A DNA stretch of 64,000 nt, taken from positions 26,164,001 through 26,228,000 of the forward strand of contig OZ024745.1 of NCBI GenBank assembly GCA_964016885.1, in the 5' to 3' direction. Below, piece by piece: positions 351 to 50,140 of this stretch. The notes under the pieces were generated by a model. It was given only the letters and a program-made list of their open reading frames with translations, did no database searches and was not told where the DNA came from. Numbering within the stretch: the stretch's first letter is position 1; each line of letters opens with the position of its first letter. The DNA is from Eledone cirrhosa (taxonomy: Eukaryota). Position numbers and translations under genes: made by a program.

Positions 351-1429
351 AAACTAGTATTTATTGTTATTTATTATACATACATAAAGTTGTGTGTGTG
401 TGTGTGTATATATATATATATATATATATACATACAAATTTGTAGTGACAGAGAAATGCGTGTTTGCGACGGAGACAATCACCGGCTTCGACTAAATAAA
501 GTTTACACATTGAAAAGCATGCATTTCATTATATATATATATATATATATATATATATATATATCCTCTCCACCCCCTCTCTCTCAATCCCCCCCCACAC
601 ACACACATATGTATATATGCATATATATATATATGTGTTCTGTTATTAATTCTGGCAATATTACACAAATATGACCCTCCCCAAGTATAACAATATATAT
701 ATATATATATATATATATATATATATATATATATATATATATATATATATATATATATATAACTTAACTTACTTTGATAACTTTGTTGGGGTTAGGCCAG
801 TATTGGCCCAGGCCTTGTCTAACTTAATAGCACCCCCCCCCCTATATATATATATATATTAATGAAAAATGGCGAGCTGTGTTGCATTATGTATAATAAA
901 TGAAGAAATAGAAGCAATAAATTAGAAATAGAAGCAAGCAGTGGTCTACTAGCCATCATAGGTAATCCTTCATATATATATATATATGTATATGCATACA
1001 TATATATTTATATATATTTATTATTACACACACACATATATGTATATAAATATATATATATAATATACATATATATATATACATATTTATAAATATATAT
1101 ATTATATATATTATTTATATATATGTATATGAATATATACATATATATGTATATAAATATTCATATATTTTATATATATATATATATATATATATATATA
1201 TATATATATATTTATATATTTCGTTTCTGAATTTGTTTAGCAAGATTCTTTATCTGAAATCGTGTGTTGAAACCGATATTGTTATACTTTGGGAGGGTCA
1301 TGTTGCCAATAAGAAACACACGCACCAGTTGCTTTCACTTCAATTTATTATATATTTATAAATTTACAAATTTATAAATTTCTGGTTGGTTGGTTGGTTG
1401 GTTCCACAACCAGATAGTTGTTTATATAT

Positions 1430-1474
1430 AGTCATAGTTCTTTCGTCACACACTCTGTGACCTCTTCAGTGACT
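1430..1474 (-). ncRNA. Minimal type I hammerhead ribozyme in the PLE pLTR
   Basis: Minus strand reads AGTCA-CTGAAGA-G-GTCACA gagtg TGTGAC-GAAA-GaaC-TA-TGACT: stem I, core, stem II and a minimal stem III. Confidence 0.75.
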
Positions 1475-1669
1475 GGGGATTCCTTTCTTTGTTTCTGTGC
1501 CTCTCCTTTGTTCTGCCATTTTGTTTCTGTGTGTGTGTGTTGTGTGCTCAGTCTGCGCATGCGCCACATCCGGGTGTCTGTGTGTGTTTATGTTCATTTA
1601 TCTATTTGTTTATTTACATGTTACTGGTTGGTTGTTTGTTCTATGTGTGTGTGTGTTTTCATTTTGTCC

Positions 1670-2179
1670 TTAATTGTAAGTTGTGATGTTGCTGTTCCAG
1701 TCATATTTTCTATTTAATTTTGGTTGTAATTCTTTTATGTTTATTGCTTCTGTAATTTGTCTAAACATTGCGTCTTTTCTGTGTGTAGATTCTATTTTTA
1801 TTTCTATGTTCTCTAATTTACCCTTGTGTTCTATCTTAGCATGTTGGTAGAGTACAGATGATTCTTTATTATCTTGAAGGTCTCGCCAGTGTTCATTTAT
1901 CCGTTCCCCTACACTACGAGCTGTCTCACCTATGTACACTATATTTTTGTCTCTACATTGTCCTTCAGTACATCTTATGCTATACACTACATTTCTAGTT
2001 TTACAGTTAATATGGGGGCTTATTTTACAGGTTACACATTTCTTATCTATACATGAGGGTCTTTGAAAGGGGTATGTCTGGCTAATAAGTGTTTTTACGG
2101 AGGTACCTGGTCTTTCTACTATCTTAATATTGAGTTTATGTTTATTTAGGGCCCTTCTAAATTTGTAATCTAGTTCACC
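1670..2179 (-). pseudogene. PLE ORF C-terminus: Cys-rich linker plus GIY-YIG endonuclease (5'-truncated, frame open)
   Basis: Hand translation extends the ORF upstream: ...RPSCIDKKCVTCKISPHINCKTRNVVYSIRC...VYIGETARSVGERINEH...RQITEAINIKELQPKLNRK. The VVY/YIG/R/E/N GIY-YIG motifs are present. A Cys-rich linker is typical of the Neptune clade. Confidence 0.88.
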
Positions 2180-46184: not shown

Positions 46185-46570
46185 GTATTTTTGTTTTGCG
46201 AGATTTCTTATCTGAAAACGAACAGGTGCGGGTGTTTTTATTGGGCAACATGACCCTCTCAAAGTATAACAATATATATATATATTTATATATATATATA
46301 TATATATATATAGGGTCATATTGCCAATAAAAACACACGCACATGTTCGGTTTCAGATAAGAAATCTCGCAAAACAAATTCAAAAACGAAAACTAATCCA
46401 TACCAAACAGTGAGTGTGTTTTATTTTTATTTCTGGCAATATTATAACAATATGACACTCCCCAAGTAGAACAATATTTGTTTCAACACATGATTTCATA
46501 TTAAAAAAAACCTTGGTGAAAGCAGCGATTTTTGGCTTAAACTTTAATGTTCTTATAATAAATAATAACA
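46185..46570. mobile_element. Cluster of diverged family A and family F termini, including an inverted pair around (TA)n
   Basis: 46193-46258 pairs with 46312-46378. A family F end lies at 46515-46562. Confidence 0.65.
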
Positions 46571-49554
46571 AGTATTACAATAATAATTGTAGGAATCCAA
46601 CTAATTGATTTTTAACTCTAGGTGCGTAAATGAAGTTGTCTGCGAATGTACTGTAAATCTGCACCATCTTCTAAAGCATGCATTTACCTTGCCGCCAATA
46701 ATTTCGAAATCTCGATACTCTCAGCATCTCATTCATTTAAAAACCCCACCTCAAATCAAACAGCATCACTTGCATAATATATAGGCAGGAATTCTAAAAC
46801 AAATTCTGTAATCCGCTGAAGTTCTATAGATTTTACTGGATAAAGATCTGTTAAACAAAATCTGGAAAATGAGTAATCTCATGCAAACAGAGTATATGAC
46901 AAAAAAGTATGTGACCTTATTTAATTTATGATAAGAGAGAAATTAGGAGCTCATTTCAGGCGGCGTACGTACAGTTCCAATAAGAATTTCAATCTCATAG
47001 ATTTTTCAAATTAGTAAAACAACATCTCAGGTGTTCGAAATACAATATATATGAAAAATAAAATAAAATGCAGATAAAAAAATTCCGTGTAGGGACGTAG
47101 TGACTAAATATACTCTACATGACTGGAGTATATTTTCTATCAGTAGGGTGTTTATACCTGTGTGTACGTACGTATGTAAGTGAGAGAGAGATAGGGAGAT
47201 ATAGTGTGTGTGTGTGTACTGTGCGCGCTTATATTTGAGTTGATATATGTACATACGCGTGCGTGGTTTGTGTATAGGTATCCAAAACATTTATTTATGC
47301 GTTGAAGATGATGTGTATTTCTGTATGAACTAAACATACATTCTTCCATCGTTGTTCTTTTTAAATATAATTTTCTGTTTATACATTGCTACTAAATTGG
47401 TATGATTCGTCTCTCTGTTATACTTCAGTATCTGGTTAAATATGTATGTGTGTATGTATGTATGTATGTATGTATGTATGTATGTATGTATGTATGTATG
47501 TATGTATGTATGTATGTATGTATGTATGTGTGTATGCATGTATGCCTGTCTGTCTGTATGTATACACACACACACACACACACACACACACACACACACA
47601 CACACACACACATATATATATATATATACATACATGTATGTGTGTGTGTATGCGAGCGTGTGTGTATGTGTGCGTGTTTGTGTGTGTTTGTGTTTGTGTG
47701 TCTGTGTATGAAGGTGTGTTTGTGTGTGTATATATATATATATATATATATATATGTTTGTATCTAAATATACCTTTTTTTTAAATTTATGGTTACATAC
47801 ATCACCAGAGATTGTCACCGTGCACATATATACATGCATAATATATATAACATATATATTTGAAATGTCTATTTTCAAAGGGGATAAACCCAATGGTTAT
47901 GTAATAATAAAGTACAATAATATTTTCTAATAATATAATATAACAATACTCACTGTTTTTTATAACTAAGTGTAATTGTTTTTGTTTACAATGACCAGGC
48001 TTGTGTTCTCAGATTTTTAAATGTTTTAATCCATAACGAGCTGAAGACGCTCTTGAGAATCACTTTAGTGAAATGTATGCAAACTATTTCGAACTTCAAG
48101 CTTATCTAACGATTTTCAGAATCGAAGCATACACACAGATAGATACAGGTACAGGCACACTGACAGACAGACAGAAATGTAAACATCAGCACAATGTGTG
48201 ATGCTGTCGTAAGAAAATTGTATTTAATTTTGTTTAATTGCTAAATCTACATTGAGTTACACAGGTGGTTAGTAAACTACGTTTGAAATAGTATAATAGG
48301 CTATTGATAGGGTATTTGCCAGCGAGTATTCTACTCACAAAGATGCAATTATATCGTTTCTAACACTATTTACAATAGTTCATTCAGAGTAAACTTCTCG
48401 AAAAACATAGCCAAACAAAAGACTATATTAACAGCAGGAAATACATCTTACAATTGAGAATACACAGGCTTATTTTAACACAGTTGATATTTTTATACTA
48501 TGTTTTTAAATGATAGAATGTTTATATTTTCCAAACGGATTCATTGGCTCAGCTTCAATTCGTTAACGAAATCACTTCATTAAACTCTTGAAACTACGTC
48601 ATTATACACTTGGAAATCCCAAGTATTTATTACTCTACACTTTAAATTTAGGAGAAGCCTTGAGATTGTGTAAGAATTCGGTTTAGGAGTATAATATTGT
48701 CTTTCTCTTCATAAGCTAGGGACAAGCTGGTAATTTACGTAAAATATAGTGGTGATTTACCATCAAAAATTATATTTGATAGTGAATGTACGGCTCAGTT
48801 TAAGGCATAGAATATTTAATAATTTTTACTATGAGTCGTGGAAGGAAAGGAACTATTGGTTCATCTCAGGAACAGAACCGTATTATTCGTATGGTTGATG
48901 CCTAGGGGCTTTGCAGGGTGCCCCTCAATTCTTTTTGCTGTAAAACAATGAAAATGGAAGTGCTAGTAGGGGCCCAAAATATCTGAAATCTTAAGGCCTA
49001 GATATGGGTTAATAGGGCACAACTCTGGAATAAGATGAATATAGAATTTGAGGTGCTTGAAATTATGCCTGTTAAATAGACACATGGGTAGCATGGAAGG
49101 AGATCGCGACACGAATAATATGTAGGAAGTGGGGGGAAATTGGTGCTGATAGTACGGAAGAATTATTCCAAGAAATAATTACAGGATGAGAAGCTATCCC
49201 GCAACCTTTGTCATTTTGTCCACAGGGCACAGCCAAAACACCAATCTAACTTAGGCGTAGATTATGACACTCTCTCCTCGTCCTCCTTTCTTTCTTTTTT
49301 TGCTTAATAATCCTTGCCCTTTGCCCTTTTCCCCCATTTCTTTCATTTATAGCATTTGTTGACATTTCTAAAGCTAATTTCTTTTGTACAAGTTGTTTTA
49401 AGAATGAAACTAAGTTATCAATTTTGTATTATACGTCATACATGTTGCTTTGTTCCCCTCACAATTGATGACTATTAGCTGTTATCCTAACAATAATACG
49501 TATATATAAGCCACACACCAAAGCCCTATATATATATATATATATATATATATA

Positions 49555-50140
49555 TTTCGTTTCTGAATTTGTTTAGCAAGATTCTTTATCTGAAATCGTG
49601 TGTTGAAACCGATATTGTTATACTTTGGGAGGGTCATGTTGCCAATAAGAAACACACGCACAAGTTGCTTTCACTTCAATTTAATTTAATATATATTTAT
49701 AAATTTACAAATTTATAAATTTCTGTTTGGTTGGTTGGTTCCACAACCAGATAGTTGTTTATATATATATAGTCATAGTTCTTTCGTCACACACTCTGTG
49801 ACCTCTTCAGTGACTGGGGATTTCTTTCTTCGTTTCTGTGCCTTTCCTTTCTTCTATCCTACGCCATTTTGTTTGACAAACAAAATGGCGTAGGATAGAA
49901 GAAAGGAAAGGCACAGAAACGAAGAAAGAAATCCCCAGTCACTGAAGAGGTCACAGAGTGTGTGACGAAAGAACTATGACTATATATATATAAACAACTA
50001 TCTGGTTGTGGAACCAACCAACCAAACAGAAATTTATAAATTTGTAAATTTATAAATATATATTAAATTAAATTGAAGTGAAAGCAACTGGTGCGTGTGT
50101 TTCTTATTGGCAACATGACCCTCCCAAAGTATAACAATAT
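49555..50140. mobile_element. Family A fold-back palindrome: 264-bp arms, 1-nt loop, 57-nt tail, no ORF
   Basis: 49612-49875 is inverted at 49877-50140. Same termini as 1219-2366. HHRs at 49771-49815 (-) and 49937-49981 (+). Confidence 0.92.
49937..49981 (+). ncRNA. Minimal type I hammerhead (mirror copy at 49771-49815, minus)
   Basis: AGTCA-CTGAAGA-G-GTCACA gagtg TGTGAC-GAAA-GaaC-TA-TGACT. Confidence 0.75.

Follow-up and report, generated by a model that had tools for sequence, protein, structure and literature searches.

Fixed paired ends of a Penelope-like retrotransposon in Eledone cirrhosa and a probable twin-priming origin of its head-to-head copies

Canonical endonuclease-positive (EN+) Penelope-like elements (PLEs) of the Neptune/Nematis type, as the available parts of PMC8557442 and PMC3846280 describe them, have one open reading frame (ORF) encoding a reverse transcriptase (RT), a CX2-5CxxC linker and a GIY-YIG endonuclease (EN) at the C-terminus, a pseudo-long terminal repeat (pLTR) overlapping the ORF start, a hammerhead core and partial tandem copies. 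An adjacent inverted, 5'-truncated copy, a tail on one side only and (TA)n targets have already been described there as well, and the passages of PMC8557442 consulted name the building of tandem and inverted structures as an open question. Here we analyse an element that shares all these features, family A, in a window of 64,000 nucleotides from Eledone cirrhosa (assembly GCA_964016885.1, contig OZ024745.1, positions 26,164,001 to 26,228,000, forward strand). Family A is a high-copy Penelope-like retrotransposon and thus belongs to a known class; the element itself is ordinary, the feature is real and the member is new. An earlier sequence-only reading of the window had missed that the layout is the known Penelope tail plus inverted pLTR.

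For Poseidon of Anolis carolinensis (PAc), the accessible part of PMC11167929 reports that in vitro the protein cuts and extends both target strands and that two starts bracket the tail. In 2014 a circular-RNA model was put forward (PMC4209133, as far as available), in which minimal hammerheads of the dimer type, present in both pLTRs, set free a circle from which complementary DNA (cDNA) of more than unit length is copied. In L1 twin priming, as outlined in the available text of PMC2837659 and bioRxiv 10.1101/2024.08.27.596794, two target ends prime one RNA, resulting in a head-to-head inversion. The accessible portion of bioRxiv 10.64898/2026.07.22.740005 contains nothing on tails or priming.

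Family A and its copies in the window

In the window, the start motif of family A lies at 1219, 34359 and 49555, and the end motif closes at 2366, 34500 and 50140, with its reverse complement also at 1276 and 49612, 57 nt inside the start. Each of the three copies consists of a tail-bearing arm (T arm) and an inverted tail-less arm (I arm), which is without the outer 57 nt, between (TA)n runs. The sequence-only reading had this layout and these ends right, except that copy 2 begins at 34359 and not at 34358; the 1148, 143 and 586 bp it gave as inner lengths are the total lengths, 1148, 142 and 586 bp. Positions in the element (r) are numbered from the tail end towards the 5' end, with one real copy, L062, as reference.

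The T arm of copy 1 (1219-2184, minus strand) aligns to r1-959 and comprises the ORF 3' end, the 3' untranslated region, the pLTR and the tail, while its I arm (2183-2366, plus strand) runs from r234 to r58. The 57-nt tail (1219-1275, minus strand) lies between the two end sites, with AATATC at both ends, and is in frame with the ORF start; the ATG is located at 1299-1301 (minus strand), 25 nt upstream of the inner end site, as judged from the open frame in L062 and the motif position. In the canonical EN+ PLEs of the sources available the tail measures 30-40 nt. A structured tail is not supported by its fold (z -0.92). The T arm of copy 2 (34359-34383, minus strand) has about 25 nt, stops before r58 and has no sequence in common with its partner, an I arm from about r150 to r58 (34411-34500, plus strand) that is joined via AT-rich filler. 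In copy 3 the T arm (49555-49874, minus strand) has its inner end at r290-320 and is mirrored by the I arm (49878-50140, plus strand) with a 3-nt spacer and 1 mismatch. A lone I-end stub of 36 nt (32146-32181, minus strand) lies within (TA)n.

In genomic copies the family A unit has 4,066 bp and one ORF with RT motifs, a CX4CxxC linker and a C-terminal EN. The pLTRs overlap the ORF start (ATG at r83) and are seen in partial tandems, in which the 4,066-bp units follow each other seamlessly. Locus L063 holds an open stretch of 1,035 amino acids (aa) with YVDD and YIGET, and in L062, a tandem copy, the frame is open through the tail into the RT. The unmirrored middle of copy 1 encodes a C-terminal ORF fragment with linker and GIY-YIG endonuclease (1676-2185, minus strand; Pfam PF01541, E 7e-5, above the cut-off; motifs). 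The RVT_1 match is weak (E 5e-4, below the cut-off), and a PDB sequence search gave nothing beyond a weak GIY-YIG match (E 0.55). Relatives at E<=1e-20 number 322, the best named one being an octopus RT protein with 67% identity. The linker, CIDKKCVTC, is located at aa 909, with two cysteines within the GIY-YIG core and two histidines further on. Hence, the element carries the CX2-5CxxC motif before a C-terminal EN with CCHH that marks Neptune and Nematis, although this does not tell the one from the other, and by the sequence criteria in the available parts of PMC8557442 it is classed as a canonical PLE of the Neptune/Nematis type, a clade assignment made by criteria and not by a tree.

A minimal type I hammerhead core (CUGAAGA, stem II, GAAA, a 2-bp stem III and CUA) is predicted in the repeated part, the pLTR, at 1430-1474 (minus strand) by sequence and fold, and fits the minimal hammerhead as described in the part of PMC4209133 available. 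Stems I and II are present in the fold, which is not significant as a fold (z -0.72); the 150 of 355 Rfam matches of the window that were inspected are sub-threshold hairpins and microsatellites, with no hammerhead among them. Naiad/Chlamys elements, with an N-terminal endonuclease and no hammerhead, were rejected as candidates, as the EN is C-terminal and a hammerhead core is present. In the L062 unit, a long asparagine/threonine/histidine-rich ORF stretch (r3150-3400) upstream of the RT resembles the N-rich inserts reported from Adineta Penelopes.

Two fixed ends and their pairing

Insertions were collected from 137 position-ordered regions in the first 39 Mb of one contig (C1) and from the window, anchored on the 24-mer at r58-81, which partly selects one end and leaves the partner end free. 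Of 90 head-to-head insertions, 74 combine a tail end with a tail-less end, one has two tail ends and one has two tail-less ends, while two are cut. In a tail-anchored sample the partner arm ends at r58-59 in 15/16 cases, and by listed positions alone 38 of 45 head-to-head neighbours are mixed, 5 alike and 2 unclassified. A sister family, B, has a tail and a tail-less end in 5/5 head-to-head pairs. Either end site also occurs alone, in single-arm copies.

Genome-wide, the 24-mer has 27,851 exact matches (reversed control 0), of which 11,663 go on into the tail and 13,079 as TATA. Among tail ends, by exact counts, 10,625 run into TATA and 425 continue into the ORF; the tail-less end (13,079) and the tail end (10,625) are thus about equally common. 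[quoted passage not shown] Its proposal of twin priming is largely right and still the best reading, but with both sites internal: the ORF begins at r83 and continues through r58 and r1, which places them in its first 28 codons.

Annealing of ATAT to the target, offered as the explanation of the site, does not hold. AATATC is found at both outer ends and nowhere else in the unit (2 sites), while ATAT occurs 21 times. An 8-nt TA stretch near r200, 140 nt upstream, forms an end at a long TA run in only 4 copies, compared with 1,462 read-throughs, whereas r58, counted equally strictly, does so in 8,078. As the longer TA stretch is almost never an end, the choice of the priming site is likely positional or set by the protein, the target match notwithstanding. 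According to the accessible part of PMC11167929, PAc is alike in its two internal start sites in the ORF start that bracket the tail, in the cutting and extension of both strands and in the AT-rich target; its start site is not target-homologous, whereas both sites of family A share ATAT with the target.

A miniature inverted-repeat element or a palindrome moved by cut-and-paste was rejected as an explanation of the paired ends: it disagrees with the differing centres, with ends that are asymmetric by 57 nt and with copies that are ORF fragments. Spread of whole palindromes with one centre, named beforehand as a finding that would speak against twin priming, was not seen: repeated centres share flanks or sit in local duplications, with one recurrent mini-junction as the exception. 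Only one clear 12-bp duplication was found among the 76 insertions studied further below, most flanks being uninformative TA. Family A works like twin priming, though not in the L1 form. As far as the available text of PMC2837659 and bioRxiv 10.1101/2024.08.27.596794 goes, L1 uses a poly(A) tail and a variable internal site and the overlap of its arms is mostly about 20 nt; in family A both sites are fixed, internal and adjacent, and the arms overlap by hundreds to thousands of bases.

Templates, junctions and competing explanations

With a slightly wider tail class, 76 insertions qualify, 74 of them with a single junction. In these 74, the tail-less arm is longer in 35 and the tail arm in 21, so that either arm can be the longer one and arm lengths are independent. 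An age comparison of symmetric with asymmetric copies, in which broken alignments misassigned some classes, gave no significant difference (p 0.14 and 0.69). The tail arm is shorter than 58 nt in 6/74, copy 2 included, and a tail arm of 12-20 nt is hidden in 10/45 apparently single tail-less copies; such arms have, therefore, no sequence overlap with their partner. The two arms of an insertion share a haplotype, differing at 25/498 diagnostic positions (46 insertions) compared with 43% for shuffled pairs, a likeness to which arm-to-arm conversion after insertion could add.

The two sharp outer-end peaks expected from twin priming were seen. Inner junctions, expected to be dispersed, do vary in their centres, but they also pile up at r290-320, just downstream of promoter-like words at 1515-1573 (minus strand), which we take to be YY1-, NRF1- and ETS-like; this pile-up and the words mark a zone that probably holds the promoter and the transcription start. 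Where r290-320 is the stop of one arm, the other arm extends further in 1/17 cases versus 38% expected, and we read these stops as cDNAs that probably ran off the start of the RNA. The 5' ends do not cluster near r208, where the hammerhead is predicted to cut (8/96 in the bin). Junction microhomology, also expected, is modest. A first simulated null was dominated by matches in low-complexity sequence; with such regions removed, 31 asymmetric junctions were left, and 18 of them show filler or a mutation close by (null 37%); in the remaining 13 clean junctions, 2-5 nt of microhomology are found in 8 (null 20%). At L140, L184, L202 and L259 several short template switches between the arms occur at the centre.

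Copies of more than unit length bear on the form of the template. Read-through junctions were studied at 51 loci, 40 of them drawn in order among the 425 and 11 from an earlier sample: of the cDNAs there that get to r290 for a second time, 0/32 stop at r290-320, compared with 23/75 arms on the first pass. A linear RNA of one unit would make the cDNA stop at this place, which points to a template that was circular or seamlessly re-entered. In 25 more-than-unit copies that show both outer ends, the end of the long arm lies <=100 nt from its partner's end, one unit later, in 8-10 (8 with conservative ends), while about 2.5 are expected. A unit-length circle would explain the second-pass and the lapping results and holds each site once; for these copies we give it an even chance, with a jump into the 3' pLTR that leaves no seam, or a transcript of several units, as possible alternatives. 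The model of PMC4209133 is, in the part available, a proposal without copy-level evidence; the second-pass cDNAs of family A support it, without separating a circle from a seamless jump. Matching the short arm to the inner or outer pLTR was mostly uninformative, as the three pLTR copies are equally alike. In two very young copies, L250 and L263, the lapping arm is 84 nt short of the partner's end, at different places of the unit, which may be an enzyme footprint.

Taken as a sequence of events, the enzyme likely cuts both strands of a (TA)n target, and the two target ends are likely extended on one RNA, one at each fixed internal site. Extension of each cDNA towards the 5' end of the RNA would cease on stalling, on reaching the other enzyme or where the template ends at the RNA start; the 3' ends of the two cDNAs would then be joined, with microhomology of 0-5 nt or a small number of filler bases at the junction. 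Short copies could, with roughly equal odds for and against, derive from a linear RNA whose start lies some 310 nt upstream of the tail end, and for more-than-unit copies the odds on a circular template of one unit, or on an RNA that is re-entered seamlessly, are similarly even. Overall, we consider twin priming on one RNA, from two fixed internal sites 57 nt apart, the probable origin of the head-to-head copies.

A number of observations weigh against this. One end lies elsewhere in 12/90 head-to-head insertions. The arms are equal within 15 nt in 18/74 copies (4.5 expected), a symmetric-centre excess as predicted if a cDNA folds back. In copy 3, about 50 bp of single-copy flank is mirrored beyond the TA runs (49476-49526 and 50164-50212, 2 mismatches), which could be fold-back into the flank or an older palindrome used as target; a mirrored flank is found in 2/76 insertions versus 1/442 control pairs. 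At L110 the arm haplotypes differ (8/21 sites), and this copy is therefore not obtainable from a single monomer circle. The lapping count was hand-curated with a threshold set after looking, and at 50 nt with conservative ends it is 2 versus 1.3, which is not significant. In the accessible text on PAc (PMC11167929) the start is the same for top and bottom strand, whereas the ends of family A differ, and hammerhead cleavage is dispensable in vitro; inverted products are not addressed there. Finally, all evidence is inserted DNA, and no RNA start, end or circle was seen; contigs of public runs (one RNA run, a small share) that cover part of copy 1 gave no RNA ends and no inversion joints.

The strongest of the other explanations, though unlikely, is dual priming, with two RNAs of one source locus and an asymmetric protein dimer that places one subunit at each site. 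It would make strand displacement over the shared region unnecessary, and two transcripts from one locus fit the shared haplotype; the differing arms of L110 also speak for it; a dimer is predicted for Poseidon (PMC11167929) and dual priming is described for L1 (PMC2837659) in the parts available. Alone, however, it yields neither the near absence of same-site pairs (2/76) nor the coupling of arm ends at r290-320 and the lapping excess.

Hardly better placed, and marginally behind it, is fold-back, in which the cDNA primed at the tail folds onto itself, serves as its own template and exits at r58, later deletions at the centre causing the asymmetry. The exit at r58 would come about by slippage onto the TA run or by endonuclease resolution, to which Craig et al. 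ascribe the tail (PMC8557442, in the section available). The symmetric-centre excess, with many of these centres at local palindromes, and the mirrored flank of copy 3 are in its favour. The tail-less arm is longer in 35/74, though, and at least 16 copies have no arm overlap. The long arm is tail-less in 12/25 more-than-unit copies, which thus had no outer tail to copy, and the very young L250, L255 and L263, with three identical pLTRs, are asymmetric already. Tail-less read-through junctions number 0 versus 425 with tail, so the tail was not lost by slippage. The one-of-each rule, either arm being the longer, the non-overlapping arms and the shared haplotype therefore favour twin priming over fold-back. 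Self-priming on an antisense transcript that builds the inverted repeat before integration, the reading of palindromes at inverted junctions published for Adineta Penelopes (PMC3846280, as available), is very improbable: palindromic centres are present in family A too, but the centres are for the most part asymmetric and unique, the two outer ends are each a sense-strand 3' end joined to TA at a fixed site, and the 5' ends cluster immediately downstream of a promoter-like zone that has sense orientation.

Neighbouring repeats and significance

Sister family B has 11,244 exact matches and shares the inner end site with family A; its tails are about 55-57 or 44 nt long, and the sequence of its tail-end site differs. 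It was sampled at loci L281-L310 and lies in the window at 632-696, an I end on the plus strand, and at 46415-46510. Of the two lone ends that the sequence-only reading had assigned to family A, the one at about 670-697 belongs here, with different upstream sequence and tail, and the other is the stub at 32146-32181. The stretch 46190-46510 combines diverged ends resembling those of A and B, placed on either side of a TA run, and includes a small palindrome. Near-perfect palindromes adjoin TA runs at 3237-3761, 12597-13176, 24350-24460, 37473-37855, 50985-51304 and 60334-60505 and may represent stubs of additional Penelope-like families. A different dispersed repeat, about 190 bp long, is present in many copies, at 4732-4916, 10073-10268, 17069-17296, 41572-41762, 42236-42429, 44865-45070 and 58345-58554.

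Compared with the canonical EN+ PLEs, what is new for family A is that the one-of-each rule and the independent arm lengths have been counted. The counts turn the loose statement that a tail is often at one end into a rule and tie it to two start sites known in vitro, and the more-than-unit copies give copy-level support to the circular template suggested in 2014. Now that an in vitro system has been published, each step is directly testable. We tentatively suggest, at somewhat less than even odds, that coordinated twin priming is the default insertion mode of PLEs, with a single complex on one RNA, often a unit circle made by the ribozyme, and the enzymes chasing each other round. If this is true, one mechanism would account for why the tail is one-sided, why the pLTR is inverted and how the promoter is regenerated via more-than-unit tandems.

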